Source of the DNA: Zootoca vivipara
Taxonomy: Eukaryota
Assembly: GCF_963506605.1 (NCBI RefSeq)
Contig: NC_083285.1
Coordinates: 71,982,001-72,046,000 of the forward strand
DNA length: 64,000 nucleotides
Reading direction: 5' to 3'
Positions 6,802-64,000 of this stretch are shown here, piece after piece; within the stretch, counting starts at the first letter, position 1; each line of letters begins with the position of its first letter. Below the pieces are notes generated by a model. That model made no database searches. It had not been told where the DNA came from and worked only from the letters and a program-made list of their open reading frames with translations. Position numbers and translations under genes: made by a program.

Positions 6802-8799
6802 TTATAGCAAAATTCCAGCTTAAACTGAAGAAAGTAGGAAAACCCACTGGGCCAGTAAGATACAATCTGAATCAAATCCCTTATGAATTCACAGTGGAAG
6901 TGAGGAACAGGTTTAAGGATTTAGATTTGGTGGACAGAGTGCCTGAAGAACTATGGATGGAGGCTCGTAACATTATACAGGAGGCAGCAACGAAAACCAT
7001 CCCAAGGAAAAGGAAATGCAAGAAAGCAAAATGGCTGTCCAACGAGGCCTTACAAATAGCGGAGGAGAGGAGGCAAGCAAAATGCAAGGGAGATAGGGAA
7101 AGATACAGGAAACTGAATGCAGATTTCCAAAAAGCAGCAAGGAGAGACAAGAGGGTCTTCTTAAATGAGCAATGCAAAGAAATAGAGGAAAACAATAGAA
7201 TGGGGAAAACCAGAGATCTGTTCAAGAAAATTGGAGATATGAAAGGAACATTTCGTACAAAGATTACCATAATCAAGGACAAAAGTGGTAAGGACCTAAC
7301 AGAAGCAGAAGACATCAAGAAGAGGTGGCAAGAATACACAGAGGAATTATACCAGAAAGATATGGAGGTCTCGTACACCCCAGGTAGTGTGGTTGCTGAC
7401 CTTGAGCCAGACATCTTGGAGAGTGAAGTCAAATGGGCCTTAGAAAGCACTGCTAATAACAAGGCCAGTGGAAGTGATGATATTCCAGCTGAACTATTTA
7501 AAATTTTAAAAGATGATGCTGTTAAGGTGCTACACCCAATATGCCAGCAAGTTTGGAAAACTCAGCAATGGCCAGAGGATTGGAGAAGATCAGTCTACAT
7601 CCCAATTCCAAAGAAGGGCAGTGCCAAAGAATGCTCCAACTACCGCACAATTGCGCTCATTTCACACGCTAGCAAGGTTATGCTTAAAATTCTACAAGGC
7701 AGGCTTAGGCAGTATGTGGACCGAGAACTCCCAGAAGTGCAAGCTGGATTTCGAAAGGGCAGAGGAACCAGAGACCAAATAGCAAACATGCGCTGGATTA
7801 TGGAGAAAGCTAGAGAGTTCCAGAAAAACGTCTACTTCTGCTTCATTGACTATGCAAAAGCCTTTGACTGTGTCGACCACAGCAAACTATGGCAAGTTCT
7901 TAAAGAAATGGGAGTGCCTAATCACCTCATCTGTCTCCTGAGAAATCTCTATGTGGGACAAGAAGCTACAGTTAGAACTGGATATGGAACAACTGATTGG
8001 TTCAAAATTGGGAAAGGAGTACGACAAGGTTGTATATTGTCTCCCTGCTTATTTAACTTATATGCAGAATTCATCATGCGAAAGGCTGGACTAGATGAAT
8101 CCCAAGCCGGAATTAAGATTGCCGGAAGAAATATCAACAACCTCAGATATGCAGATGACACAACCTTGATGGCAGAAAGCGAGGAGGAATTAAAGAACCT
8201 TTTAATGAGGGTGAAAGAGGAGAGCGCAAATTATGGTCTGAAGCTCAACATCAAAAAACCAAGATCATGGCCACCGGTCCCATCACCTCCTGGCAAATAG
8301 AAGGGGAAGAAATGGAGGCAGTGAGAGATTTTACTTTCTTGGGCTCCTTGATCACTGCAGATGGTGACAGCAGTCACGAAATTAAAAGACGCCTGCTTCT
8401 TGGGAGAAAAGCAATGACAAACCTAGACAGCATCTTAAAAAGCAGAGACATCACCTTGCCGACAAAGGTCCGTATAGTTAAAGCTATGGTTTTCCCAGTA
8501 GTGATGTATGGAAGTGAGAGCTGGACCATAAAGAAGGCTGATCGCCGAAGAATTGATGCTTTTGAATTATGGTGCTGGAGGAGACTCTTGAGAGTCCCAT
8601 GGACTGCTAGAAGATCAAACCTATCCATTCTTAAGGAAATCAGCCCTGAGTGCTCCCTGGAAGGACAGATCGTGAAGCTGAGGCTCCAATACTTTGGCCA
8701 CCTCATGAGAAGAGAAGAATCCTTGGAAAAGACCCTGATGTTGGGAAAGATTGAGGGCACTAGGAGAAGGGGACGACAGAGGACAAGATGGTTGGACAG

Positions 8800-9227
8800 T
8801 GTGAGGGACAGGGGATATCGCGAAGTCCCTCCCCTCCTGAGTTCAAGCCCGTCCCCGAGCAAAGGGGAAAGCAGGGAGAGTTCCGATTCCAGTGGGGAAG
8901 CAGGAAGTCGTGTCCGAGGCTCAGGCAAGGTAGAGGAGCCAGGGTCCCAGGTGGGACAGGAAGGGGCAAGCAAGGGGGGAAGACCCATCCCTCCAACTCC
9001 AGAATTACGCAGGAAGAGGAGGGGCAAGAGGATGGGTCTGCCAAAGCTTTTGTGTTGGAGAAAGACGCGCCAAAAGCCATTAGGAGGTTCTGAAACCGAC
9101 TGACAACATCGCTCCGTGTAAATAGCAATGACTTGAGCACTGTAAATACGCAGCACCAATAAAAGAATAAAATGCAGAGCTGCGTAGCGTCGTTACTCTG
9201 AAGTAGTCCACTCCGGCCACTGTGACA
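8800..9227 (+). repeat. 5' LTR
   Basis: TGTGAGGG...TGTGACA; two AATAAA at ~9158-9172. Confidence 0.95.
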
Positions 9228-9269
9228 GCAACCTCCTAATCATTTTTGGGCTACTTCGGAGTTGCCGGG

Positions 9270-10496
9270 ATGAGCGTGTCCGAGGCGGAGAAGTGGCGGC
9301 AGATCGCTGAGCAAGCCCAGCTAGAACTGCAACAGCTGTCGCTGCAGGCGCAGGGAGAATTGAAGGCAGCTAAAGAGGAGACTAAGAAGGTCCAGGACGA
9401 CCGGCTACAACTTGCGGAACAGGTGAGAGAGCTCCAGGAAAAAGAGCAGCATTTAAGGGCGGTGGCGGTAGACCTCCAAAACAAGCTGGATGCAGAGAAA
9501 AACAAGGCGGGAGGGGCTCCCCAAGTCCAAGTGCTGCCAGGAAGGAGAGCAGGGACCCTTGTAAGCAAGTTCAATGGAGACCCGAAGGAGTTTCAGGGCT
9601 TTGAGACTGAGATCGTGTATGCTCTTGAGCTGCACCAGAATGAGTTCCCCGATGATGAGCACAGAGTAGCGTTTATTGTGGAACATCTCACCGGAGCAGC
9701 CAGGGAGTGGCTAAGACCATTAATCGCAACCAAGAATCCTTGCATGAAAAATGTCCAACAATTTCTAGAAGGTTTGAGGACGATGTATTCGTCCGATAGT
9801 CATTTGGACCAGACTAAGGAGGAACTGCATAATTTACGCCAAGGAAATATGACAGTTCGCGCATATTGGGCGAAATTCACCATGCTGGTGCACAGACTGG
9901 GGTGGGTTTTGGATTCGCCTCCCATGCAAGCTGCGTTTTACTTGGGTTTGAGCGAGGAGGTGAAGGATGAACTCTCGAGAGGTCCAAAGCCCAGTACTAT
10001 GGATCAGCTGAGCAAAGCAGCTCTGGCGGTGGGGGTGAGGCAGGAATCCCGGTGGAACGACAAGCAAGCGACGCGCGCAAAGCGGGCTTGGTTCCCACGG
10101 TCGCAGGAGAAGCCACTCCCTCAACAACCCTTTCAGGCCACGCCTGGAGCCAGCCAGGACCAGGAGCCCATGCAGATTGATAGCGCGCGCGCGCGGGCTT
10201 TTCAAACCCCAGCGGCGCCAAGACGCAAGGAGGGAAGGGGCGGGAATTGCTTTCTCTGCAACTCACCCCAGCATCTCGTCAGAGACTGCCCACATCGCAG
10301 GGAGTGGCAAGGAAAGGCGGGAACGGTGGTGCCCTCCCCCACTGACGCAGCACCACAGCAGGGAAACGGGAAAGCCTGGCTGCAGGAGACAAGGGGCAGC
10401 AGCCAGGCACAGTCAGCAGACAACAGCCCCAGCCCGCCCACCCGCACAGAGAGGAGCAGAGCCAGCCCACCCCTCCCAGAGCAGGAGTGGTTCTAG
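9270..10496 (+). CDS. gag: Gag (coiled-coil N-terminus, capsid, CCHC zinc knuckle)
   Basis: First ATG at 9270 (ORF track opens at TTG 9246); FNGDPKEFQGF, LRQGNMTVRAYWAKF, EPMQID, CFLCNSPQHLVRDC. Confidence 0.93.
   Translation: MSVSEAEKWRQIAEQAQLELQQLSLQAQGELKAAKEETKKVQDDRLQLAEQVRELQEKEQHLRAVAVDLQNKLDAEKNKAGGAPQVQVLPGRRAGTLVSKFNGDPKEFQGFETEIVYALELHQNEFPDDEHRVAFIVEHLTGAAREWLRPLIATKNPCMKNVQQFLEGLRTMYSSDSHLDQTKEELHNLRQGNMTVRAYWAKFTMLVHRLGWVLDSPPMQAAFYLGLSEEVKDELSRGPKPSTMDQLSKAALAVGVRQESRWNDKQATRAKRAWFPRSQEKPLPQQPFQATPGASQDQEPMQIDSARARAFQTPAAPRRKEGRGGNCFLCNSPQHLVRDCPHRREWQGKAGTVVPSPTDAAPQQGNGKAWLQETRGSSQAQSADNSPSPPTRTERSRASPPLPEQEWF
10361..10432 (+). promoter_or_regulatory. -1 ribosomal frameshift signal (G GGA AAC plus stem-loop/pseudoknot)
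   Basis: Heptamer in the correct gag phase, 6-nt spacer, perfect 10-bp stem 10374-10383/10399-10408. Confidence 0.85.
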
Positions 10497-13400
10497 AAGT
10501 GACGCTAACGCTCCCAAATGGCTATCCCCTGACGGTCCTCGCCTTAATTGACAGTGGGGCGTCCGCCAACTTCTTCTCGAGAAGCTTTGCAGAAGAGCAC
10601 CAAATCCAGCTTTTGCAGTTGGATTTTCCTCTGCACGTAGCAACCATTGACGGCAGGGAGCTGCTGGGAGGGGCCATCACACATCAAACCCCCCCCATGA
10701 GAATGACGGTGGGAAGGCACTCAGAGACACTGGCGTTCAACGTCACCACCATCTCAGACCCCCCCATCGTCTTGGGCATGAGCTGGCTGGCGCGCCACGA
10801 CCCCTCCATCAGTTGGCACCAGAGGTGCATCACGTTTGGGTCAGACTTTTGTCTGGAACATTGCATGCAGCACCAACCAGGGGAGGGGCCTCCGATAGCC
10901 ACGGTGGCCACCATGCATATCAAAGGGGGTGAGGCAATACCCAAGCAGTACTGGGACCTGCAGGAGGTCTTCAGCGAAGCGGAGTCCGACCACCTACCCC
11001 CGCACAGGCCTTTTGACTGCCAGATCAACCTGGTGCCAGGGGCGACGATACCCCCAGCCAAGCTGTACGCCATGTCAGACCAGGAGCTGGAGGATCTGCG
11101 CGCTTTCATCGACAAGAACCTCAAGCGGGGGTTCATAAGGGAAAGCAAGGCAGCAGGGGGCAGCCCGGTCTTCTGGGTGGACAAGAAAGACACGCAACAG
11201 CGCCGTCTTGTGGTGGACTTTAGACGGCTGAATTCGGTGACAGAGCCCGTGGCTTTCCCCATGCCCAGAGTGGATGATCTCCTGACAGCGGCACGCAGGG
11301 GCAAGATTTTCACCAAGCTGGACCTAAGGGGGGCGTACAACTTGATCAGGATCCGGGAAGGAGATGAATGGAAAACCACGATGTTCACGCCTCTGGGCTC
11401 TTTTGAATATCTGGTGATGCCCTTCGGTTTGCAAGGGGGCTCAGCATGCTTCCAGGCCTTCATGCACCACGTCCTGGGGTCCCTCCTCTTCAGGAAATGC
11501 TTGGTCTTCCTAGATGACATCCTTATCTACTCGAATGACCCAGTGCAGCATGTGAAAGATGTCAGAGAGGTGTTGCAACGCCTGAAGGAGAACCACCTGT
11601 ATGTGAAGCTGGAGAAGTGCAAGTTTCACACCAAAGAGGTGGACTTCCTGGGCTACAAGCTGTCAGACAAGGGGCTGGCGATGGACAAGGACAAGGTGCA
11701 GGCCATCCTGGACTGGCACAGCCCCAGGACGCGCAAAGATGCCCAACGCCTACTAGGCTTCGCTAACTTCTACAGGAAGTTCATCAAGAACTTCTCTCGC
11801 GTTACGGCTCCCATCACGGACTGCCTGAGAGGCAAGCAGAAGTTCAAGTGGACACCAGAGGCGCAAGCAGCGTTCGAAAGCCTCAAGAGAGTGTTCGCCT
11901 CAGACCAAAACCTGTTCCATGTGGTGCAGGACGCGCCCCTACGCATTGAGACAGATGCTTCTGAAAAAGCTGTGGGCGCAATTTTGTTGCAACTGGACGC
12001 CAACAGGGAGTGGAGACCCTGTGCCTTCTTCTCCAGGAAGCTGACACAGCCTGAACGCAACTACACAGTGTTTGATAGGGAACTTCTTGCGATCTACGCT
12101 GCGTTCCAGCACTGGCGACACTTCCTGGTGGGCGCGAAGCACCCCATCCAGGTGTGCACAGACCACAAGAACCTGGAGTTCTGGAGAACTGCCAGGGTGC
12201 TCAACCAGCGGCAGATACGGTGGGCAGAGTTCTTCTCGAACTTCAACTTCTCCATCCACTACATCCCGGGGGAGCAGAATGTCAGGGCGGATGCCCTCTC
12301 CCGCAAGCCAGAGTACATGGAGGAGGAGGCGCCACCAGCCCCAAGGCACATTTTCCCCCCGTCGGCATGGTCCTGCGGAGCAGCTGTGGTGAGCGAGGCA
12401 GAACTCACAGCACTGACGGCAGCGGATGAATTTGCCAACCGCATCTTCAGAGAACTGAGAGGGGGGAGGGAGCAGGCAAAAGACTTTGCAGAACGCAGAG
12501 GGCTGCTTTTCTACAAGGGTGCGCTGTACCTACCCACCACCCAGCTCCGACGTACGGTCCTCAAGCAGATGCACGACAACCCTACAGCGGGGCATTTTGG
12601 AAGGGACAAAACCGCTCACCTAGTCATGAGACACTTCTGGTGGCCAGGGGTGCGGGAAGATGTTCGAGACTATGTAAGGGGCTGTACCACCTGCCAGCGG
12701 GCGAAGGTGGTCAGAGCAGCGCCACCAGGGTTGCTGGAGCCCTTAGCCACACCACACAGGCCGTGGGAAGTGGTGTCCATGGACTTCATCACAGATCTGC
12801 CTTCGTCCAGGGGTAAGACTGCAGTGTTGGTGGTGGTGGACCTTATGTCCAAAATGTGTCACTTTATACCGTGTGCCAGGGCAGTCTCGGCAGAAGAGAC
12901 AGCCAAACTGTTTGTTGATCACATTTTCAGACTGCATGGATTACCTTTAAGGGTTATTTCGGATCGTGGCCGCCAATTTGTTTCCAGGTTCTGGCGGCGG
13001 CTCATGAACCTCCTGCAGGTGGAGGTCAGCTTGTCGACGGCTAGACACCCGCAGACCAACGGACAAGCGGAGAGGGTCAACGCCATTCTGCAGCAGTACC
13101 TGAGATGCTACGTCAGCCAGCGGCAAACGGACTGGGTGGATCGCTTGCCACTAGCAGAATTTGCCTACAACAATGCAGTGCACGTCTCCACAGGGGTGTC
13201 GCCCTTTAAGGCCAATTACGGGCGCGACCTCAGATCTTTCCCAGAGAGGGAGAGGGAGGAGGAGGAGGAGGAGGGCCCACAGGCTGAGGATTGGGCAGAG
13301 GAACTGGAGACGGTGCACCAGCAGCTCAGAGACCACTTGGAGAGGGCCAAGGAAGCGTACAAAAAGGGGGCAGATCGCCACAGGCGACAAGGGGAGGTCA

Positions 13401-14488
13401 TCAGGGTGGGGGACAAGGTGTGGTTGTCCTCGGAGGGCCTTCCCACCAGAGGGAGGTGCAAAAAGCTGGCACCCAAAAGGCTGGGCCCCTTCACGGTCAC
13501 GCAACAGGTAAACCCGGTGGCATACAGGCTGGCACTGCCAGAGGACATGAGGGTGCATCCAGTGTTTCATAGATCGCTGCTGTCGCCGTACAGGGAAAGC
13601 AGCAGGCTCCGAGACAGCGAACAAACCCCCGAGGGAGGGGGGGAGAGGGAAGGCAGGGAGCAACTCAATGAGGCCACGGCCATCCTGGATTCAAGGTGGG
13701 GGGTGGGGGGACTGGAGTACCTCATGGCATGGGAGGATGCTCCACCGTCCCAGAATGAATGGGTCCCAGCCACTCAGATACAGGAGGAATTCTTGGTGGA
13801 AGAATTTCACGCCCTCTTTCCCCACAGACCCAAGCCCTGGCACATGGAAAGGGAGGGGGAGGAGGAGGAGGCACGGGAGAGCAGCTCACCATGGCGCTGG
13901 GAAGCGGAGTTTGAGGAACCAGAGGATGAGGTATGGGTGTCACCGAGATCCACCCAGTCAGAGGAAGGAGCAGATTGGCAGAACGTTTTTACCCCCACCA
14001 GCTCTGACGCCACGGACTTTTTGGGATTCCCGTCCGCCCAGGCGGAAGGGGGGGGCTCGCAGGACTGGGGGGAGGTATTCACACCAACGGGCTCGGAGAG
14101 CACTGAGTTCTTAGGCTTCCAGTCGTCACCGACACATGGGGGGGGCCTGGGGAGGGGTGAAGGAGAGCTTGGGAGGGGGGTGGATGTGAGGGACAGGGGA
14201 TATCGCGAAGTCCCTCCCCTCCTGAGTTCAAGCCCGTCCCCGAGCAAAGGGGAAAGCAGGGAGAGTTCCGATTCCAGTGGGGAAGCAGGAAGTCGTGTCC
14301 GAGGCTCAGGCAAGGTAGAGGAGCCAGGGTCCCAGGTGGGACAGGAAGGGGCAAGCAAGGGGGGAAGACCCATCCCTCCAACTCCAGAATTACGCAGGAA
14401 GAGGAGGGGCAAGAGGATGGGTCTGCCAAAGCTTTTGTGTTGGAGAAAGACGCGCCAAAAGCCATTAGGAGGTTCTGAAACCGACTGA
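10361..14488 (+). CDS. pol: Pol (protease-RT-RNase H-integrase-chromodomain), reached by -1 frameshift
   Basis: ALIDSGAS, YLVMPFGL, FLDDILIYS, ETDAS/TDHKNL, HHCC, DFITDLP/SDRG/QTNGQAE, GPF, chromodomain ILDSR..EYLMAW..NEW; frame open from the slippery site at 10361. Confidence 0.95.
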   Translation, partial: GKRESLAAGDKGQQPGTVSRQQPQPAHPHREEQSQPTPPRAGVVLEVTLTLPNGYPLTVLALIDSGASANFFSRSFAEEHQIQLLQLDFPLHVATIDGRELLGGAITHQTPPMRMTVGRHSETLAFNVTTISDPPIVLGMSWLARHDPSISWHQRCITFGSDFCLEHCMQHQPGEGPPIATVATMHIKGGEAIPKQYWDLQEVFSEAESDHLPPHRPFDCQINLVPGATIPPAKLYAMSDQELEDLRAFIDKNLKRGFIRESKAAGGSPVFWVDKKDTQQRRLVVDFRRLNSVTEPVAFPMPRVDDLLTAARRGKIFTKLDLRGAYNLIRIREGDEWKTTMFTPLGSFEYLVMPFGLQGGSACFQAFMHHVLGSLLFRKCLVFLDDILIYSNDPVQHVKDVREVLQRLKENHLYVKLEKCKFHTKEVDFLGYKLSDKGLAMDKDKVQAILDWHSPRTRKDAQRLLGFANFYRKFIKNFSRVTAPITDCLRGKQKFKWTPEAQAAFESLKRVFASDQNLFHVVQDAPLRIETDASEKAVGAILLQLDANREWRPCAFFSRKLTQPERNYTVFDRELLAIYAAFQHWRHFLVGAKHPIQVCTDHKNLEFWRTARVLNQRQIRWAEFFSNFNFSIHYIPGEQNVRADALSRKPEYMEEEAPPAPRHIFPPSAWSCGAAVVSEAELTALTAADEFANRIFRELRGGREQAKDFAERRGLLFYKGALYLPTTQLRRTVLKQMHDNPTAGHFGRDKTAHLVMRHFWWPGVREDVRDYVRGCTTCQRAKVVRAAPPGLLEPLATPHRPWEVVSMDFITDLPSSRGKTAVLVVVDLMSKMCHFIPCARAVSAEETAKLFVDHIFRLHGLPLRVISDRGRQFVSRFWRRLMNLLQVEVSLSTARHPQTNGQAERVNAILQQYLRCYVSQRQTDWVDRLPLAEFAYNNAVHVSTGVSPFKANYGRDLRSFPEREREEEEEEGPQAEDWAEELETVHQQLRDHLERAKEAYKKGADRHRRQGEVIRVGDKVWLSSEGLPTRGRCKKLAPKRLGPFTVTQQVNPVAYRLALPEDMRVHPVFHRSLLSPYRESSRLRDSEQTPEGGGEREGREQLNEATAILDSRWGVGGLEYLMAWEDAPPSQNEWVPATQIQEEFLVEEFHALFPHRPKPWHMEREGEEEEARESSSPWRWEAEFEEPEDEVWVSPRSTQSEEGADWQNVFTPTSSDATDFLGFPSAQAEGGGSQDWGEVFTPTGSESTEFLGFQSSPTHGGGLGRGEGELGRGVDVRDRGYREVPPLLSSSPSPSKGESRESSDSSGEAGSRVRGSGKVEEPGSQVGQEGASKGGRPIPPTPELRRKRRGKRMGLPKLLCWRKTRQKPLGGSETD

Positions 14489-14612
14489 CAACATCGCTCC
14501 GTGTAAATAGCAATGACTTGAGCACTGTAAATACGCAGCACCAATAAAAGAATAAAATGCAGAGCTGCGTAGCGTCGTTACTCTGAAGTAGTCCACTCCG
14601 GCCACTGTGACA
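14185..14612 (+). repeat. 3' LTR
   Basis: Matches the 5' LTR; preceded by a polypurine tract. Confidence 0.95.
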
Positions 14613-14789
14613 GACAGTGTTCTCGAAGCTACGAACATGAGTTTGACCAAATTGCGGGAGGCAGTGGAAGACAGGAGTGCCTGGCGTGCTATGGTCCATG
14701 GGGTCACGAAGAGTCGGACACGACTAAACGACAATTTTGTTTCAACGGCAGACAAACACGGCTACCTAACCATTTCCTAATGAACTTTT

Positions 14790-15813: not shown

Positions 15814-16059
15814 CTTTTTTTTTTTTTGTTCTTGTTAACTACGCTGTTTTTATTTTGCATGTCTTTCTTTTTCCAATTCATCTTTATTGGTTTTTAACAA
15901 CAGGAATAACTTTCTTGACACAAAATCCTAGCGTCCAGTTTCCGTTTCTTGTTGATGTGCCTGTGTTTCTAAATCCTCAGAAAGAAAAACCAAGATCTCT
16001 TCTTCATCCTTCGACTCGTTCACATTCTAATTCCCTCCGTGAGTGAGTTCCTTTTGCAT

Positions 16060-16520
16060 TCATTTCTAGGCTGCCCGCTGCCCGGCGATCGAGCCTCCTT
16101 CTCCCCGGATCCTGCAGGGGGGGAGCTGGGCGCGCCCGGCTTGACAAGGGTTACAATGAACGGAGCGGGATTCCTAGAGGGAACCGGAAAGGAAGGCGGA
16201 GCCGGAAGCCCCGCCCTCCGCGTCTCTTCCTGCGACCCTTCCGTGAGTCTCTCTCGGCCCCGGGATCGAAGCGGTTGGCAGGGGGAGTCTGGCCGGCCTC
16301 CGCACAGCCCCGGGACAAGGCCGCCAGGTCGCAGCTCCAGCCTGGCTCGGGGGGGGGGGGGCTGGGAAGGAAGGAAGCGAAGCCCGGCCTGGCGGGAAGG
16401 GGGCGGGCGGAGGGTTCGAGACCCACTGGTTTCCCTCCCTCACCTGCCTTGGCTGGCCAGGTGAAGCCATTCCCGGGATTCCTGGGCGAGAGCTCCCCAG
16501 AAGGAGCCTGAGGTGTGTCC
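16060..16520 (+). promoter_or_regulatory. CpG island, probable promoter/first exon of the KRAB-ZNF gene
   Basis: GC- and CpG-dense; ETS motif CCGGAAG and GC box CCCGCCC at ~16202-16217; candidate donor cc/GTGAGT near 16243. Confidence 0.65.
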
Positions 16521-19382: not shown

Positions 19383-21337
19383 TAGTTCTGGTTACAGGTA
19401 GGTAGCCGTGTTGGTCTGGATCGAAGTAAAATAAAAAAATTCCTTCAGTAGCACCTTAAAGACCAACTAAGTTTTTATTTTGGTATGAGCTTTCGTGTGC
19501 ATGCACACTTCTTCAGATACAGTGAAATGGAAGTTTCCAGGCACTTATGTAGAGAAGGGGTGGGGAGGGGTGGGGATGGGGAGGGGGGATCACTCAGAAG
19601 GGTGGTGGAAATGGGTGATTGACTGACTGATAGCTGTTGATGACCGCAAACGACTGCAAATGGTTTTGCATGAAAAAGCAAGGGTTGAGATGGCTGAAGA
19701 TCGCTTATCATGTATAATGAGATAAGAACCCGATATCTCTGTTCAAACCAGGTCCCTCCATGGTTTTGAGCTTGGTGATAAGTTGCAATTCAGCAACTTC
19801 TCTTTCCAGTCTATTTCTGAAATTCTTTTGTAGTAAGACAGCTACTTTGAGATCTTGTATAGAATGTCCTGGGAGATTGAAGTGTTCTCCTACTGGTTTT
19901 TCTGTCTTCTGGTTCCTGATGTCAGATTTATGTCCATTTATCCTTTGGCGTAGGGTTTGGCCTGTTTGTCCAATATAGAGAGCTGAAGGGCACTGTTGGC
20001 ATTTGATGGCATACACAATGTTAGAGGATGAGCAATTAAATAGTCCTGAGATGGTATGTTGGATGTTGTTGGGGCCAGTAATGGTGTTGTCTGGGTGTAT
20101 GTGGCAGCAAAGTTGGCATCTGGGTTTATTGCAGGCTCTGGTACCAGTGTCCATGTTAAGTCTGGTGGTTGTATTATTGTGGGTGAGGAGTTGTTTAAGA
20201 TTGGGTGGCTGTCTGTAGGCAATGAAAGGTCTTCCTCCCAGAGCTTGAGAAAGGGAGCGGTCATTGTCCAGGAGAGGCTGTAGATCTCTGATGATGCGTT
20301 GTACTGTTTTAGCTTGGGAGCTGTATGTGATGACTAGTGGTGTTCTGTTATTTTCTTTTTTGGGTCTGTCTTGCAGCAGGTTCTCTCTAGGTATCTGTCT
20401 GGCTCTGTTGATCTGTTGTTTAACTTCATCAGGTGGATATTTTAGTTCTAAAAAGGTTTGCTGTAGATCTCTTAGGTGAGATTCTCTGTCTGTAGAGTTG
20501 GAACAGATGCGGTTGTAACGTAAGGCCTGGCTGTATACGATGGATTGTTTGGTATGTTTGGGATGGTAGCTAGAAGCATGTAGATATGTTTGTCTGTCAG
20601 TTGGTTTTCTGTATAAGGTGGTGTCTATACGTCCATCCTGTATTTTTATAGTAGTGTCCAAAAAATGTATTTCTTGCATAGATTGGTTCATTGTTAGGTT
20701 GATGGTGGGGTGAAAGTCATTGAATGTCTGGTGGAAGGTTTCCAGGGTCTGTTGTCCATGTGTCCAGATAATAAAAATATCGTCAATGTATCGCAGGTAC
20801 AGGAGAGGTTTGAGTGGGTAGGAGTTAAGGAAACGTTGTTCTAAATCTGCCATGAAGATGTTGGCATACTGTGGGGCCATGCGGGTGCCCATGGCTGTGC
20901 CGCTGATCTGGAGGAACAGGTCATCACCAAATTTGAAGTGGTTGTGGGTAAGGACAAAGTGGCAGAGTTTGGTAGCAAAGTCCGCTGTGGTTTTATCTGA
21001 AATGGTGTTCCTTATGGCTTGTAAACCATCATTGTGTGGGATGTTGGTATATAGAGATTCCACATCCATAGTGGCTAGTATAGTATTGTTAGGAAGATTG
21101 TTCAAATATTGTATTTTCCTCAGAAAATCTGTGGTGTCACGTACGTAGCTGGGAGCACTAATAGCATATGGTTTCAGAACAGAGTCCATATAGCCGGAAA
21201 CACCCACTGTAATGGTGCCAATACCTGAGATGATGGGGCGTCCTGGGTTTCCTGGTTTGTGTATTTTGGGTAGAAGATAGAAAGTTCCTGGCCGAGGTTC
21301 CGCTGGTGTGTTTGTGAGGATCTGTTCTTGGATGTGT
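19383..21337 (-). mobile_element. Penelope-like element (Neptune-type), 5'-truncated, left arm of palindrome
   Basis: ORF to 19708 with RT (MDVESLYTNIP, GTAMG, RYIDD), Cys-rich linker, GIY-YIG (VYAIKC..LYIGQT); 3' region with hammerhead at 19483-19520. Confidence 0.93.
19483..19520 (-). ncRNA. Minimal hammerhead ribozyme motif
   Basis: Reverse complement of GTATCTGAAGAAGTGTGCATGCACACGAAAGCTCATAC. Confidence 0.7.
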
Positions 21338-21359
21338 ACACATCCAAGAACAGATGTGT

Positions 21360-23267
21360 ACACATCCAAGAACAGATCCTCACAAACACACCAGCGGAAC
21401 CTCGGCCAGGAACTTTCTATCTTCTACCCAAAATACACAAACCAGGAAACCCAGGACGCCCCATCATCTCAGGTATTGGCACCATTACAGTGGGTGTTTC
21501 CGGCTATATGGACTCTGTTCTGAAACCATATGCTATTAGTGCTCCCAGCTACGTACGTGACACCACAGATTTTCTGAGGAAAATACAATATTTGAACAAT
21601 CTTCCTAACAATACTATACTAGCCACTATGGATGTGGAATCTCTATATACCAACATCCCACACAATGATGGTTTACAAGCCATAAGGAACACCATTTCAG
21701 ATAAAACCACAGCGGACTTTGCTACCAAACTCTGCCACTTTGTCCTTACCCACAACCACTTCAAATTTGGTGATGACCTGTTCCTCCAGATCAGCGGCAC
21801 AGCCATGGGCACCCGCATGGCCCCACAGTATGCCAACATCTTCATGGCAGATTTAGAACAACGTTTCCTTAACTCCTACCCACTCAAACCTCTCCTGTAC
21901 CTGCGATACATTGACGATATTTTTATTATCTGGACACATGGACAACAGACCCTGGAAACCTTCCACCAGACATTCAATGACTTTCACCCCACCATCAACC
22001 TAACAATGAACCAATCTATGCAAGAAATACATTTTTTGGACACTACTATAAAAATACAGGATGGACGTATAGACACCACCTTATACAGAAAACCAACTGA
22101 CAGACAAACATATCTACATGCTTCTAGCTACCATCCCAAACATACCAAACAATCCATCGTATACAGCCAGGCCTTACGTTACAACCGCATCTGTTCCAAC
22201 TCTACAGACAGAGAATCTCACCTAAGAGATCTACAGCAAACCTTTTTAGAACTAAAATATCCACCTGATGAAGTTAAACAACAGATCAACAGAGCCAGAC
22301 AGATACCTAGAGAGAACCTGCTGCAAGACAGACCCAAAAAAGAAAATAACAGAACACCACTAGTCATCACATACAGCTCCCAAGCTAAAACAGTACAACG
22401 CATCATCAGAGATCTACAGCCTCTCCTGGACAATGACCGCTCCCTTTCTCAAGCTCTGGGAGGAAGACCTTTCATTGCCTACAGACAGCCACCCAATCTT
22501 AAACAACTCCTCACCCACAATAATACAACCACCAGACTTAACATGGACACTGGTACCAGAGCCTGCAATAAACCCAGATGCCAACTTTGCTGCCACATAC
22601 ACCCAGACAACACCATTACTGGCCCCAACAACATCCAACATACCATCTCAGGACTATTTAATTGCTCATCCTCTAACATTGTGTATGCCATCAAATGCCA
22701 ACAGTGCCCTTCAGCTCTCTATATTGGACAAACAGGCCAAACCCTACGCCAAAGGATAAATGGACATAAATCTGACATCAGGAACCAGAAGACAGAAAAA
22801 CCAGTAGGAGAACACTTCAATCTCCCAGGACATTCTATACAAGATCTCAAAGTAGCTGTCTTACTACAAAAGAATTTCAGAAATAGACTGGAAAGAGAAG
22901 TTGCTGAATTGCAACTTATCACCAAGCTCAAAACCATGGAGGGACCTGGTTTGAACAGAGATATCGGATTCTTATCTCATTATACATGATAAGCGATCTT
23001 CAGCCATCTCAACCCTTGCTTTTTCATGCAAAACCATTTGCAGTCGTTTGCGGTCATCAACAGCTATCAGTCAGTCAATCACCCATTTCCACCACCCTTC
23101 TGAGTGATCCCCCCTCCCCATCCCCACCCCTCCCCACCCCTTCTCTACATAAGTGCCTGGAAACTTCCATTTCACTGTATCTGAAGAAGTGTGCATGCAC
23201 ACGAAAGCTCATACCAAAATAAAAACTTAGTTGGTCTTTAAGGTGCTACTGAAGGAATTTTTTTATT
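21360..23267 (+). mobile_element. Penelope-like element (Neptune-type), 5'-truncated, right arm of palindrome
   Basis: Reverse complement of the left arm; ORF ends 22989; TSD ATTATTCTTCCTCCA at 19368-19382 and 23265-23279 flanks the pair. Confidence 0.93.
23177..23214 (+). ncRNA. Minimal hammerhead ribozyme motif
   Basis: GTAT-CTGAAGA-A-GTGTGC-AT-GCACAC-GAAA-GCTC-ATAC. Confidence 0.7.
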
Positions 23268-23868: not shown

Positions 23869-25719
<1,851 letters not shown>

Positions 25720-33600: not shown

Positions 33601-36075
33601 CAGCAGGGATGCCCCGGCACATTCAGGATTCTGCTATCCCCCAACCACCAGCAGGTGCCTCTTTTGCCTTGTGCTGGGGACGTTTTCTTTAAAAAGGGAT
33701 GGAAAAGTAAAGGAGAGGGAGAGGTCTCCTTGCTGGGTCAGGGGAATGTTGCTGCCCGCTAGGTGGTGCTGTTGGCAGATGGTTCTTGAGCTTTATGAAG
33801 ATGCTTTTTAGAATTGGGAGTTTAGTGCTCAAGTACGGAAATGTGTGTGTGACTGTGAGAGAGACGTGCAAGTTGTGTGAGGAAGGTGGGAGAGATGTAT
33901 TTGTGATGTGTGTGTGTGTGTGATGGAGGGAGGGAGGGACAGATTTACATGTTGTTTCATGCAAGTGAGAAAAAGGGGTTACATGTATGTGTGCTCAGAA
34001 GGGAAGATATGTACAGTACTTGAGCGGAGAGGGAGAGCAGTCTGTGTCTCTGAGGGGCTGAGGTGTGGTGTGGGGGGCCAGGGGGGGCTATTGCCCCAGC
34101 ACACATTTTTGAGGGTGTGCTATCAGGAATCCCCACAAGCCCTGGCAGCTGAGGCACACTGGCAGACAGGTTGGTCTGGTGGGCAGGTGGGTGGAGGCAG
34201 CAGTCAAAGAGCCTGTTGGAGGCAGGCTCCATCCACCCTCTGCGGGGGCTCTGCAGACCACCTCCTGGTGCCCGCCCCAACCACCCAGTCCACCAGGTGA
34301 AGGGGGTGGCAACCCACACTACGCTAATGGTGAGGGGGGAGGAATGCACACATGCACATGTGGTGCATATGAGAGAGAGAGAGATCGAGATCGAGATCTG
34401 AGTGTTTGTATATCTGTGCGGTATAAGGTGGAGCGAGAGACACAAAACTTGCATGTATGTCTGTGGTCTGTATGTGCGAGGGCATGTGTGTGCTCTGTGT
34501 GTATGCAATAGTGTCGTCTGGCTACCTTGTGTAGATTTTCCTGGTACAAGGAGTGCTCCCTGGTGTTATTGGACAACAGCAGTACCAGTGTGTACGTTTG
34601 CATGTAAAAACAACTTTAAGTGACACAGTCAGGAGAAACAGGGCACAGCTGGCTTCCCATGGTAAACCTGGAAGTTTGGGGGGAGGGAAGCAGCAATGAC
34701 TGTACTGTACTCTCTACAATTTCCCCTATGCTCACCCCAATGGCTTTAACTTAAACAAATAAATGGAAATTACTATGTGAAACATTTTGAATTTCATTAT
34801 GTAGTTCCAATTTTTATTATTAACTGTGTCATTAAAAGTTAACCACAAACTCAACAAAGAAGGGGGCACAGGAAGAGAGAAGTGTGGGAGACACATTTTA
34901 AATTTATTAAGATATTAGTACCAGCATTTCTGGAAGTCCAAAATTCATTTGACAATAAATCTGTAGTCACCATGTCTTTTAAGTTTGGATTTGTGGGTCA
35001 CCATACCAAAAACATTGGGGACCACTGACTAAGGACAGTCCTGAGAGCTGGACAGATACACCTGGGCACCCCCAGGTTGTGGATTTATTTTCTTTTTTCT
35101 TTTAATCCAGCAGTTATTTTGTGGGAAATTCTCCTGAATGACAGCTTTGTATGCATTTTTCTGTAATCTAATGCACTTTTGTATGTAATTTTTGTAAATA
35201 TATCTATTTATAGGCATACTGTGCCCAATGCAGTTCAAAGAATGTGCTGTGTGTTTGTCTGTGTATTATTTCATAAAGTGCAAATTAGGTAGATTCACCT
35301 TCAAATGTGAACTGAATTAAAGAAGTGGAAGCTAGCATTCCCTATAGTATCAAGTTGCTTACCATAGCAGGAGATGCTACACCCATTGGCTGTTGGGCGA
35401 TGTCCATTGTCGCACCACCAGCGGCTGCTTATCTGAAAGATTCCATACTCACGATTGCCGCTGGAGGTTTGTGGCCCCATGAGTCTGGTGTTAAATGAGC
35501 TTTGATGATAAGCGGCACAGATCCCTGGAACAAAGCGAACAAGAAAAGGGTTACAATTTGGGTACACGCTGGGTGTGCAATCTCTTTTTTTTTGTCAAAG
35601 TTGCAGCATTTTGAAACAGAATAATTTAAAAACATTCTTACAATGTTCACGGTAAAAGCTGTCTGTAACGTCTAAACCCCCCCCCCAAATGGTCCTAAAT
35701 AGAAATTTTTTTCATAATCTCACATTAGTAAGGAGGATAAATTTGGTTTGGTTTGGCCCTTTAGATGTGCAGTGAGGTGAATCTTTTTATGTCTGCTTCT
35801 TGATCTTTCAAAGATTAATGAGAGTTCGGACATTCTGATGGGCAGCAGGGTTTGTGTGAACCATTTCCTGAAAAGCAGTCCCCATTTCTACTTTGCCTCA
35901 AAACACCAGAAATAGCAAAGAAAGGAGGAGCGAACTCACAGTTGGCCAGGCTGACGCCACGATATCCATCCATCCCAGCCCGTTTCAATCGCGCAGCCAG
36001 TTCACATCTCCCAAACACTTTGGCTTCATTCCCTGCAAGGAGGAGGCAGAAGAGGGTGAGGGCCAGAACCATCAT
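30619..36075 (-). CDS. c-type lysozyme-like paralog A (147 aa, cationic, E35Q/D52E); exons 36075-35940, 35524-35363, 32636-32558, 30685-30619
   Basis: Exons of 136/162/79/67 bp with GT-AG sites splice to [147 protein letters not shown]; 8 Cys; AATAAA at 30365-30360. Confidence 0.93.
31295..31683 (+). mobile_element. Solo LTR (389 bp, CCAAT-rich) in intron 3 of lysozyme A
   Basis: TGTTA...TTTCA, TSD GCTTG (31290-31294, 31684-31688), 55-bp internal repeats, TATA and AATAAA; same family as 63584-63962. Confidence 0.88.
33039..33293 (+). mobile_element. hAT (Charlie-like) MITE
   Basis: CAGGGG(G)TC...GACCCCTG termini, 8-bp TSD GCCTAGGG. Confidence 0.85.
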
Positions 36076-36126
36076 CTCTGCGATTCTCTGGAGAGAGATG
36101 CTTGGATTCCCTGGGGTCCCCAGTGG

Positions 36127-36134
36127 CTTTTGTA
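36127..36134 (-). promoter_or_regulatory. Variant TATA box (TACAAAAG) of lysozyme A
   Basis: Same position and flanks as TATAAAAG of paralog B. Confidence 0.55.
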
Positions 36135-37174
36135 GACCAAAAATTTGGGCAGAGTCCAGATGGTAAGCAGAACACTGATGGGGGGTGGAATAAATATTGA
36201 CAGTAACCCCGCTCCCTGCAAAAAAAAACCAAAAAACAGACACATGGTGCAATTCTGTTTTGATATATGATTAGGAAATATCTCCATATTTATTTATCAT
36301 TTTAAATGGAAGAGATTAAAGCAGGCAGCATATATGCGCTTAAAGACATAGCATCTGTGTAATAGTAAATAATTACCTAATAGGGAAAAAGGCAGACTCC
36401 TGGGACAGAGGGACATTGTCCTGCTGTAAGGGCTGAGGAGCCCAGACTCACTGGAACAAACTCTGGGGTTGGGGCAAATGTCGAGAATGCTTTAAAATGC
36501 TTTAAAATAGTTTTTAATCTGGGCCGTTTTAGTTTTAGTTAGTTAGTTAGTTTGTTTTGTTTTCCTCTGTTGGGGGTGGGATAAACATTTAGTTGGGGCT
36601 GGGGATTAGTTTAATTTTAGTATAGCTGTAAATTCTTGTTGTTGTTTTTTAAAAATTAGTTTCTACTGTTTTATTGGTTTATTGTATAGGTCCCTCTACT
36701 TATAGGTGGATGGAGGACTGTTGAAACCTTGTGGGAAGCCAAATATCTTTTACAGGAGAGTTGTCACAAAGGACCCTGCAGGGCAGAAGAACATGAGAAG
36801 AGCCATCTGGATTTGAGTAATTCTCTTGTGCAAAATCCTTCAGATCCACATCTCATACCATCATTTCTGACTGCCTGGGCTTTCTCTCCACCATCTGCAG
36901 CTCAATGGCTTGTCTCCAAATCCACAAATTGACTCCTGATTCCTCTCTTCTCCCTGGACAATGGTGGACGTTGATCTTTAAAATTTCAGTGATGCCTGGT
37001 GCAAGGACAAAACTCAGCACCCCTACCCCACACCTCATGTGGGAAAACATTGCCCTAAACCCATCTCTGCCCCAGGAACCACCAAATCTGTTCTGAGAGT
37101 CATTCCAATCTTTAGAGCAGATTTTGAGGTTACCTGGGGGAGTCTTCAGTGGAGAGGAGGGAAATGTCCTATAC

Positions 37175-53545: not shown

Positions 53546-55675
53546 ATATTGACCTATTTATTGATTATACATCCTGCTGGGGGTTTTTTTGCACAAAGTT
53601 TGTGAGCAAAGTAGACAACATTAACTAGTCACTGAGCATTCATTCTGAATATTTTTGGGGGAGCTTATTTGAGGTTGCATCAAACAATTGCTGACCTCCA
53701 TTTTCCAGTGCATTTCTCTACCACTTTCTGTATTGCAAAAAGTCTGGGGTTTTGGTGGGGGGGGCAGGGGGAGAAGAGGAAATATAATTTTGCAAAATAA
53801 TGCCCAATCAACTTTTGCCAAATCAACAATTGCAAAACCTGAATATGTTGGTATATGATTGAATTCCAACTGAAAGGAGTGAAAATATGAAAGTGTTCCT
53901 AACCCAGGTCTGAATCCAACGTCTGTTGTGCTTCCTGGCTGTTCCTTCAACAGTCCCTTTCTAGACTACTTTTATAGCAAAACTATGCATTTTATTCTGC
54001 AGTGCACAATTGAAAATGCCTTCTTGAGTGGAGAGCTGCATTGCAACATTTGGAGAAGGGTGAAATCGGAAGGATCTGCACATTAGCCCAGGAGCTGCAG
54101 GCTGGGTCAGAGCAAGTCAGGTCAGTTCATACGGGAAATTGCAAACAACTTCTCTATCTGTCCTGAACTGAACAGAGGAGACTCCGGGGGATGTTTCTCG
54201 GATGAAGGGTCACATTCCCTTCTGAGGGCCAAACGCAAGTGGTGGGCGAGGCCAGAAGCAAAAGCAGGAGAACAGTGACTATACCTTTTGCATTTGTACA
54301 GATTAGTTTCTACACACACTCACACACCCTTCTTTATGCCCCTTTCAAGGAAGCAAGAGTCATTTTCAGTCTTTGAGGACACATTCCAGCCAGGACAAAG
54401 CACTCAAGGAAGGGTGCAAAGCATGGGCAGTGAGGGGCCCGGCAGAGTCCTGGTGTGAAATGAAGCCAGAATGCTTCTGAATAAGAGCTAGAGGGAGAGG
54501 AACAGAGTCCAGTCAAAAGTCCTAGCTGAGCCCCTGGCAACCTTGTGGTGCACAGGTTCTATATCTCTCTAGCATACCATCATTTCTCCCATGCTCTAAC
54601 GCTGCTTGCAAAGTTCATACTAATATGAGCTTCAGTTTGGTGAATGCACATCCACCCAGAGTTGGGCTTAAATTTGCTCAGAAAATAATTTCCATTTTTC
54701 TGAGGGTTTTCTTTTAGGGGTTCTCCCTGAACTGATGGAAAATTTCAGCCACATGCCACCATCATCCTGAGAGTATTTAGCAAAATAGCCCACACCAATT
54801 TCCCCCCCAAAAGTGGAGAATAGGGATCCACTGTAAACATTGCTCACTCTTATTTTTGACAGCAGGAATGGGTTTGTCTTCTGTCCCTTTCTACCTTAGC
54901 CCATTGCTTCATTCGTCTAACAACATGAATTCACAAAATAGTAAATAGTACCCCTCCTTACTAACTGAGCTGAAATTTCTTAGAAGAGAATTTTCTTTTT
55001 TTGCCTCCTCCCCAACTCTTTCAAAATTCCACTGGCCACCAGAGAACATGCACACATACGCCAGTTTGCTGCTCACAAACAGGGTGGATAATTTTGGAGG
55101 CTAGTTTTGCTCATGTGCAGAAAAAAATATCCCACAAGGTGATTGCTCATAGGGGTTACATGAACTGAATCTGGTAAAGGAAAGTGAGTTTTCCATAGCT
55201 GCAAAGTGTTTTTCCGCTGTGTGAAACCTTCCTTCGCCCATGGCTTTGTAGATCTGCTTCACTACTAATACTGCACCACAGTAGTTACATACTGCAGTTA
55301 TAACTACTGTGGTGCATGAGAGAATATTGCCATACACAAATTGGTGGGCTTATTTTTTGGCAGGTTTGGCCTCATTTTTTCACTGTATTCTAATTGGCTT
55401 ATGTTATAGGTAGCTGTTTTGACTGGGTTTGTGTGTGAGAGAGTGTCCTTGGTTTTTCTTCCATAACATGGGTAATTTGTGGTTCTCGTTATAGTTTCAC
55501 AGAATTCTCATGTGCACCTAGGCCCCTCAAAATGGGTGACTCCTGGACTAGAGGGTCAAACCCACAATGACAGTTCAGGTTTACTAATGCTCTTACATAC
55601 CGGTATTTCTGCTCATGGCATTCATAACTGATGTAGGTCTATGTCACTTTGTGTTAATTCCGCTACAGATCAGGG

Positions 55676-56629
55676 ATGGGTCATGATCCTTCTATCAACT
55701 GTACCATGGTGACCGAGTTTGTCCTGTTGGGGTTCACTAGTCACCCAGGCTTGGCTCGACTGCTCTTTGGACTCTTCCTCCTGATGTTTGCCGTGACCTT
55801 GGCAGGCAACGGGCTGATTATGACTGTGGTGTGGACTGATCCTCTCCTCCATACCCCCATGTACCTCTTCCTGGGCAGCCTTTCATGCTCTGAGACAGCC
55901 TACACTCTGGTGGTCATACCACAAATGCTTGGTGACCTGCTGGCTCCCCAGAGGCCCTTTCCCTTGGCATCGTGTGCGGCTCAGATGTTCTTCTTTGTGG
56001 CCTTAGGGGTGGCTGACTGTCTGCTGTTGACAGCCATGGCATGGGATCGCTATGTGGCCATCTGTCACCCACTACACTATGGGGCCTTCATGAGCCAACG
56101 GATTTGTTGGTGCTTAGTGATGGGGTCTGTCTGTGGTGGTTTCATTCTTTCTTCCTTCCTCACTGGAGTGATTTTCTCTTTGCCATTTTGTGCGCCCAAC
56201 CATATCCCCCATTTCTTCTGTGACATCCCTCCTGTGCTGAGCAGGATATGTCCTGGCTATGGAACTATGGAAATTCTCGTTACAACCTTGGTTGCCATGA
56301 TCCTCATCATCCCTTTCTCCTTCATCATGCTGTCTTACGGGTGCATTTTGATGGCTTCCTTGCACATGAGCTCGTCTCAGTACTGTCGCAAGGCCTTCTC
56401 CACCTGTGGAGCCCACTTGACAGTGGTCTTTCTTCACTATGGCTGTGCCATCTTCTCATATGCCAGACCCAAAGGCAGCTATATTGAAGGCCAGGACCAT
56501 ATCCTTGCGGTGTCTTACACTGTTCTCATTCCCATGCTCAACCCTCTGATCTACACTCTAAGGAACAATGAAGTGAAGGGAGCCCTTAGGAAGATGATGT
56601 GCCGGGGTTGCCTTATTCCTAAGGGGTAG
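55676..56629 (+). CDS. Olfactory receptor, intact (317 aa, class II, family-10-like)
   Basis: Single exon; LHTPMYLFL, MAWDRYVAICHPLHY, HFFCD, KAFSTCGAHL, PMLNPLIYTLRN; N-glycan sequon NCT. Confidence 0.96.
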   Translation: MGHDPSINCTMVTEFVLLGFTSHPGLARLLFGLFLLMFAVTLAGNGLIMTVVWTDPLLHTPMYLFLGSLSCSETAYTLVVIPQMLGDLLAPQRPFPLASCAAQMFFFVALGVADCLLLTAMAWDRYVAICHPLHYGAFMSQRICWCLVMGSVCGGFILSSFLTGVIFSLPFCAPNHIPHFFCDIPPVLSRICPGYGTMEILVTTLVAMILIIPFSFIMLSYGCILMASLHMSSSQYCRKAFSTCGAHLTVVFLHYGCAIFSYARPKGSYIEGQDHILAVSYTVLIPMLNPLIYTLRNNEVKGALRKMMCRGCLIPKG

Positions 56630-62888: not shown

Positions 62889-62999
62889 TCACCAACAATA
62901 ATGGTGATGGGATTGAGTCACACTCCAATTACTATAGTTTGGGGGCATCTTTACTATCCCGGCAGATAATTCCACATCTTGGGAAGAATTTACAACGTC

Positions 63000-63583
63000 A
63001 TGGTTCCTGAAGATGATAATGAAACGACACCAGAGACCTTCCTACTGACTGGGCTTTCCAGCCAGCCACTCATGCGCAAGGTGCTCTTTGTTGTCTTTCT
63101 CTTCCTCTATCTAATGACTCTTATTGGGAATGGCCTTATTGTCCTCTTGATCGTAGCAGATCCTCACCTCCTCACCCCCATGTATTTCTTTATAGGCAAC
63201 CTCTCCCTTCTTGACATCTGCTATACTACCAGCACAGTCCCACAGATGCTGGCCCTCAGCTTCACGGATAGGCCCACTATTTCCAATGCCAGATGTTTTG
63301 CCCAGATGTGTATCTCGCTCTTCCTTGGAACGACAGAATGCATTCTGTTGGCTGCCATGGCTTATGACCGCTTTGTGGCGATCTGCATGCCACTCCACTA
63401 TACGCTGATCATGAACAGAAGGCTGTGTGGCTGTCTGGCTGTCTCCTCGTGGGTCTTGGCCTCCCTGTTGACCCTTGTACCATCCTTCACCATGAAGATC
63501 AAACTATGTGGGCACAATGTCATCAACCATTTTGCATGTGAAGTTCAGGCTGTTGTGAAACTAGCATGTTCTGATATCTCAGC
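63000..63583 (+). pseudogene. Olfactory receptor interrupted by an LTR retrotransposon
   Basis: ATG at 63000; LLTPMYFFIGNLS, MAYDRFVAICMPLHY, NHFACE, KLACSDIS, then LTR sequence; TM5-7 not in the window. Confidence 0.9.
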
Positions 63584-64000
63584 TGAAATGTACTCGGAGT
63601 CGAGAGTGAATTTCATGCTCTTTATTCAGCTCATAGTCATCAAGGAGAAGAGGAGAAGAAGAAGAATGGCTCTTTTCCCAAAACCATCTGCTTATATACA
63701 TTATTTACACAATGGGCCTTGCGTGATTGGCTACTTCAGGGCTACACCTGTGGGCCAATTATATTGTGGATTGACTTCTGCCTGCAGCCTGATTGGCTGC
63801 TCCTACAGGCCAATCAGGTAGCAGATTCACTTCTGCCAGCCGCCTGATTGGCTGCTCCAGCAGGCCAATCAGGTTGCGGATTCACTTCCACCTGGAGTTG
63901 GATTGGGTAGCTCCCGCTGTTTCTGAATCCTATTGTTCTAGGATTCAGCTCAGTACATAACACCCCTCCCCTCTAAGTTCCAGTCCTGCCCGGGAAGTTG
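63584..64000 (-). mobile_element. 3' LTR (63584-63962) plus PPT of an LTR retrotransposon continuing beyond the window
   Basis: Reverse complement of the 31295-31683 LTR family; PPT AGAGGGGGAGGGG adjacent at ~63963-63975. Confidence 0.88.

Follow-up and report, generated by a model that had tools for sequence, protein, structure and literature searches.

An intact retrotransposon in the window (the whole stretch of 64,000 nucleotides of Zootoca vivipara DNA that was analysed) carries in its Pol tail, between the chromodomain and the 3' LTR, two tandem motif units of the form W-x-x-V-F-x9-F-L-G-F, spaced by 90 nt. The motifs are under selection at the protein level, they recur in two lineages of related elements, and no carrier has an intact methyl-lysine cage in a chromodomain. 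The explanation that we prefer, with a probability of about 0.47, is that these selected motifs, which have the layout of the host TIMs, would bind the IBD of LEDGF/HRP2 and tether integration broadly to chromatin, not sharply to genes. A role in chromatin tethering during integration, when all its versions are taken together, is probable.

The element and its family

The window element is an intact chromoviral Ty3/Gypsy element inside an RTE/BovB-like LINE, with LTRs, gag, the order protease, RT, RNase H and integrase, and a C-terminal integrase chromodomain. On the forward strand, the 5' target-site duplication GACAG (8795..8799), which lies within the LINE, is followed by a 5' LTR of 428 nt bounded by TG...CA (8800..9227), showing no difference from the 3' LTR (14185..14612), after which the GACAG duplication is found again (14613..14617). 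Elements of the Tf1/sushi group have a priming site complementary to their own LTR rather than to a tRNA, and this is the case here: the 11 nt primer-binding site (9230..9240) pairs with LTR positions 9079-9089 and no tRNA-type primer site is present, an arrangement of self-priming type that we take to be Tf1-type. The gag ORF (9240..10496) contains Retrotrans_gag, Ty3_capsid and a zinc knuckle. The pol ORF (10346..14488; 1380 aa) encodes protease, RT, RNase H, integrase, SH3, chromodomain and tail; the integrase SH3_Tf2-1 domain spans aa 1022-1083 (13409..13594) and the chromodomain aa 1110-1155 (13673..13810), the latter scoring 27.2 bits with Pfam Chromo (cut-off 25.1). A purine-rich tract (14161..14184) lies upstream of the 3' LTR, and about 100 codons of the pol 3' end run inside this LTR (14185-14488). 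Near the Pol C-terminus the LTR encodes a basic stretch and LLCW (14393..14443), which, with the variants LSW and LNW, is common to related families and kept across the divergent P0003, P0004, P0179, P0181 and P0006; we regard it as a candidate second motif in the Pol end.

The family is young. In the host genome, the tail is 100% identical in all 150 scored protein matches and in all 40 scored DNA matches, and the identical copies are spread over four contigs (C1-C4), most of them with the full 1380-aa frame. The identical LTRs together with the 150 identical tails indicate a very recent burst of amplification. In three raw RNA runs, the coverage of the element was patchy, on both strands and mostly by reads 95-99% alike, in which autonomous and read-through transcription are inseparable.

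As for the rest of the window, two tandem, nearly identical ORFs of 571 aa on the reverse strand (19708-22989) encode what we take to be a Penelope-type RT with GIY-YIG. A C2H2 zinc-finger array (23869-25719, forward strand), a lysozyme-like exon (35815-36270, reverse strand) and two olfactory-receptor-like ORFs (55658-56629 and 62970-63821, forward strand) were labelled by eye, and a GC-rich stretch is found around 16000-16500.

Sequence and selection of the tandem motifs

Motif 1 (WQNVFTPTSSDATDFLGF, 13976-14029, aa 1211-1228) and motif 2 (WGEVFTPTGSESTEFLGF, 14066-14119, aa 1241-1258) are both in the pol frame, and the initial annotation, which had reported two FxGF copies at this spacing behind the chromodomain, had located them correctly. 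Each copy starts with a W-x-x-V-F anchor (W1211/V1214/F1215 and W1241/V1244/F1245, respectively) whose spacing is that of a short helix, as a pattern only. The anchor is followed by a linker of 9 residues, of which 2 are Asp/Glu (Asp in motif 1, Glu in motif 2) and 5 Ser/Thr, and by the terminal FLGF; one S/T-x-x-D/E site of CK2 type is found per copy, at T1218 and T1248. Folding of the tail from its single sequence gave a mean pLDDT of 39.9, uninformative on the anchor helix.

It had also been noted at the outset that the residues are kept while the codons diverge. Indeed, 13 of the 19 aligned residues are identical between the two copies, and the same codon is used in only 2 of these 13. The values of pS (0.92) and pN (0.20) between copies indicate that the constraint acts on the protein, and in four comparisons of subfamilies of the host genome the motifs likewise gave pN (0.02-0.20) lower than pS (0.18-0.80). 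When the tail was shuffled, the full pattern appeared at least once in 16 of 100,000 shuffles and twice in none of 100,000, figures that are overstated as the pattern was defined post hoc. The tail is acidic and of low complexity, and many relatives have FLGF in their RT region as well, without a TIM-like role there; both observations would fit a neutral tail in which a duplication arose by chance, or a constraint acting on DNA or RNA. Against this, synonymous sites between the copies are near saturation with the residues retained, and the motif recurs both across families only 60-70% identical in the integrase and in a separate lineage. This explanation is largely refuted and we consider it extremely improbable.

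The resemblance to (E/D)xExFxGF proposed in the initial annotation stands only in part: the three-part layout is there, but the strict consensus D/E-x-E-x-F-x-G-F (PMC8022399, in the passages available) is missed by both window copies, which have Thr at the second Glu. Among the relatives, 5 of the 12 examined fit the strict form (P0025, P0177, P0179, P0182 and P0325). We class the window motifs as TIM-like: all three parts of a TIM are present as a pattern, which makes them candidate members.

Distribution among relatives

Relatives were gathered with two queries, the SH3/chromodomain/tail region and the integrase core, blind to the motif; in the 135 obtained, everything after the SH3 domain was scanned for FxGF, some records being truncated. 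Tail carriers were 11 of the 135, all from Podarcis or Anolis, and the named elements nearest to the window element are from Podarcis. Over 136 tails, including that of the window, FxGF was seen 13 times versus 1.07 expected from shuffles. The complete layout of anchor, acidic Ser/Thr linker and FxGF is found again in families of Podarcis and Anolis, several families having two motifs per tail. A search of the representative library gave 6 more carriers among 149 new proteins, three of them from Podarcis; five further FxGF matches in this library fall in the RT region. The expectation that the motif would be kept in related squamate and fish elements was borne out for squamates, with divergent Podarcis and Anolis families carrying it, but not for fish: the FxGF tail was absent from all named fish and amphibian relatives, as well as from the snake and fungal ones and from several lizard families, among records of which some are truncated.

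In an alignment of 15 element motifs, the last anchor Phe is present in all 15, the Gly and the last Phe of FxGF are invariant, and the first Phe is found in 14. The middle position of FxGF varies freely among L, W, I, R, Q, H, E and V around the conserved F, G and F; within the subfamilies of the host genome it is L, W or I, with the remainder unchanged. In one Podarcis family (P0005-P0007, P0030-P0032 and P0184) the linker has no acidic residues and only Ser/Thr, so that any binding there would need phosphorylation.

In the integrase trees the Anolis carriers fall outside the main clade of carriers, and the sisters of that clade are motif-less. A single clade of all 11 carriers was rejected (p-AU 0.00165, on a quick tree of 31 rows), and a 54-row integrase tree agreed on the separate position of the Anolis carriers; this leaves two gains, an exchange of tails, or one gain followed by several losses. 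In the Anolis elements P0025 and P0119 the motif follows a GDSVM stretch, which elsewhere is sited where the tail enters the LTR; judging from the protein, the motif of these two elements may be encoded by the LTR.

Similarity to host motifs that bind LEDGF and HRP2

In the passages available of a TND review (PMC9987994), a TIM is a short helix of hydrophobic residues joined by an acidic Ser/Thr linker (8-16 residues, phosphorylated by CK2) to FxGF; this last part is essential for binding to LEDGF and HRP2 and specific to these two. This specificity narrows the list of partners first proposed, which comprised the domains of LEDGF (PSIP1), HRP2 (HDGFL2), IWS1, TFIIS and MED26: of that list LEDGF and HRP2 stand. 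The host FxGF TIMs, namely JPO2/CDCA7L, MLL1, IWS1, POGZ and fly JIL-1 (compared through the accessible parts of PMC9987994, PMC8022399 and 10.1101/624023, and PDB entries 6EMO and 5YI9), have, as here, an i/i+4 hydrophobic anchor, an acidic Ser/Thr linker of 8-9 residues and FxGF. In particular, the anchor spacing of the element motifs matches that described for F129/F133 of MLL1 (PMC8022399). Unlike the host TIMs, the element motif sits on the Pol of a mobile element, and in the window copies acidic residues are few and the second Glu is replaced by Thr.

To search the PDB (177,635 sequences), queries were built from element motifs only, with no host sequences. The best match of the Anolis motif was the LEDGF IBD-JPO2 M1 fusion (E 0.06). 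A profile of the 15 element motifs returned five matches in total, three of them unrelated, with JPO2 M1 in first place (E 0.59) and JPO2 M2 in fourth (E 3.3); JPO2 likewise has a tandem motif pair, and the profile retrieved both members. These E-values are weak, and the weight of the evidence is in which entries surface. The window tail alone gave no PDB match at E up to 10, and the ESM Atlas search gave no usable match. The host genome encodes HRP2 IBD exons, one of which is 97% identical to a lacertid protein; the same search, with its one match to HRP2, did not pick up a PSIP1/LEDGF exon.

Judging from the motif pattern, we consider it quite probable that the tail binds the LEDGF/HRP2 domain and that binding is tuned by phosphorylation and avidity. 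The W/L-x-x-V/I-F part would enter one pocket of the IBD as a short helix, and FxGF would fill a second. Phosphorylation of the Ser/Thr linker would bring in the charge for which other families use Asp/Glu, and would act as a switch; avidity would come from the tandem arrangement of the motifs on a multimeric integrase.

The conserved unit could instead bind another partner, through what we take to be an Atg8/LIR-type W-x-x-V motif, a nucleoporin-like FG contact or a protease cleavage site. It is true that both window copies start with D-W-x-x-V, the LIR pattern, and that copy 1 ends in F-P. However, the Anolis, P0182, P0325 and L101 motifs have Leu or Phe at the Trp position, the Pro is not kept, and what is kept is F..F-x-G-F, in the order F-x-G-F and not F-x-F-G. 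Given this pattern of conservation, we discarded the LIR, FG-repeat and protease-site readings, and a different partner seems to us improbable.

The chromodomain and its methyl-lysine cage

The three-aromatic cage is intact in none of the 12 motif carriers versus 101 of the 118 other elements, the remaining 17 non-carriers having no full cage; this correlation rests on only two independent lineages. In the window the cage positions are N/W/A instead of aromatic/W/aromatic, so the chromodomain is not of type I, which reads H3K9me; one carrier keeps two of the three residues, and the Anolis pair has no chromodomain. The cage-less chromodomain of the window is itself under purifying selection (pN 0.02-0.07 versus pS 0.40-0.71), and such strong conservation means that it was not simply replaced.

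According to the passages available of PMC6317226, the cage binds methylated H3K9, and the partner of the cage-less type II domains is unknown. The chromoviruses with type II chromodomains described there share with the window element an integrase C-terminal chromodomain without the first and third cage residues; they are plant elements, and FxGF is not mentioned in those passages. We suggest that the PWWP domain of LEDGF/HRP2 would provide the contact with chromatin that, in the sister families, is given by the methyl-lysine-reading chromodomain.

Insertion sites

Of the 127 carrier copies listed for contigs C1-C3, 40 were surveyed over flanks of 10 kb. These were compared with 40 random sites on C1-C3 and with all 37 copies, at least 97% alike, of a second young family of the same genome (L087-L091 and others), in which the cage is intact and FxGF absent. 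GC, CpG o/e and strand skew were alike in the three sets of flanks, skew being computed without 3 carrier and 2 control rows that had too little unique sequence. CpG-island-like windows were found in 5 of 40 carriers, 3 of 37 copies of the cage-intact family and 12 of 40 random sites.

Host exons were sought with a simple picker based on frequency tables; on a test locus, three of its five best candidates were HRP2 exons. The 684 top candidates were run through Pfam, and three wholly repetitive flanks without candidates were scored as misses. An exon lay within 10 kb in 6-7 of 40 carriers, 8-9 of 40 random sites and 10 of 37 copies of the motif-less family, where the upper counts (7 and 9) include a doubtful coiled-coil match. 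Exon proximity was thus not enriched among these surviving copies, at low power (Fisher p 0.77 versus random, 0.26 versus the motif-less family). Twice the random rate is unlikely: if the true rate were 0.4, at most 7 of 40 would be seen with p 0.002, the baseline being taken as exact. Smaller effects, or purging by selection, may remain.

These data bear on the proposal of the initial annotation that the motif tethers integration to transcribed gene bodies, which found no support in exon proximity, GC or skew. In its strongest form, the motifs would bind LEDGF/HRP2 and steer integration into gene bodies as in HIV, with selection against intronic insertions masking the bias. The motif evidence would be the same as for the broad tether, and the accessible part of PMC9987994 states that LEDGF/HRP2 are readers of H3K36me2/3 and that they bias the integration of lentiviruses to active genes. 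Moreover, some carrier copies lie less than 10 kb from dynein, titin-like, HECT, WD40, EGF and adenylate-cyclase exons, and carrier flanks are not repeat-rich when compared to random ones (p 0.15), as those of the cage-intact family are (p 0.001-0.002), the two families showing no significant difference between them (p 0.09). The exon counts given above speak against it, and the survey leans negative on gene-body integration as in lentiviruses; we consider this version unlikely. In addition, HRP2 is reported to favour silent marks (PMC4797281, in the passages available), so that binding to HRP2 need not mean gene bodies. The broad tether fits the flank data better than a strong targeting of gene bodies does.

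The strong motif evidence, joined to the lack of a targeting signature in the flanks, could also be explained if the motifs bound LEDGF, HRP2 or a different TND with a function unrelated to targeting, such as integrase stability or nuclear retention, recruitment of repair, or escape from silencing. HRP2 and LEDGF act in homologous-recombination repair (PMC4797281), and a fly LEDGF-domain protein stabilises its own FxGF partner (10.1101/624023), as given in the accessible parts of these sources. On the other hand, the motif is placed where LTR elements carry targeting modules, and in both lineages it accompanies the loss of the cage or of the entire chromodomain. We judge such a role to be slightly less likely still than strong gene-body targeting, and we retain the broad tether to chromatin as the preferred explanation.

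On C1-C3, 51 of the 127 carrier copies are in the terminal tenth of a chromosome end (p 2e-7). The control family, with 11 of 37 so placed, does not differ (Fisher p 0.19), and the enrichment is therefore not credited to the motif. In the 3' flanks of L001-L060, 49 of them distinct, a weak site preference was observed, with T rare at +1 and A/T at +7/+8.

Comparison with known systems

Integrase-tail motifs that recruit host factors and LEDGF-binding motifs are each known, and their combination appears to be undescribed. The initial annotation knew of no description of such a motif for chromoviruses, and our search agrees: no FxGF or TND-binding motif in a retrotransposon was found in the titles and abstract starts of the open-access papers returned. 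In the passages available of the TND review (PMC9987994), lentiviruses are the sole LEDGF/HRP2 hijackers mentioned and the string 'transpos' is absent. The pogo and Passer transposases were considered as described carriers of a LEDGF motif and discarded, as the main texts of PMC9976928 and PMC7386202 have no mention of LEDGF.

If our explanation is true, a genomic retrotransposon has reached the LEDGF/HRP2 domain by a copied host motif, which would be a case of convergence, and the carriers would show in nature how a single integrase scaffold can acquire and shed targeting modules. It would also be a concrete lead on how elements with cage-less chromodomains engage chromatin. Since motif-bearing and motif-less families are active in the same genome, the effect on insertion sites is testable with population data. 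In its widest form, which we advance tentatively and at slightly less than even chances, lizard chromoviruses would twice have swapped methyl-lysine reading by the chromodomain for mimicry of a LEDGF/HRP2 motif. They would have come upon the tether of HIV by an unrelated, phospho-switchable linear motif, and would be the first endogenous LTR elements to hijack these proteins for insertion placement.

Lentiviruses engage LEDGF through a folded surface of the integrase core and not through a linear FxGF motif. The host domain that they use for LEDGF/HRP2 tethering (PMC9987994 and PMC9065133, in the parts available) is the same predicted for the window integrase. They show a clear gene-body bias, whereas none is evident among the surviving copies here. 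Targeting motifs on the integrase tail are known for Ty5, which binds Sir4, and for MLV, which binds BET proteins. In Ty1, a short motif of the unstructured integrase C-terminus recruits AC40 (PMC7459421, in the passages available), and for the window element we propose that a host chromatin factor is recruited in a like manner. With respect to the tails of Ty1, Ty5 and MLV, the element described here would have another host partner, shows no evident sharp insertion window, and combines its motifs with a cage-less but conserved chromodomain.
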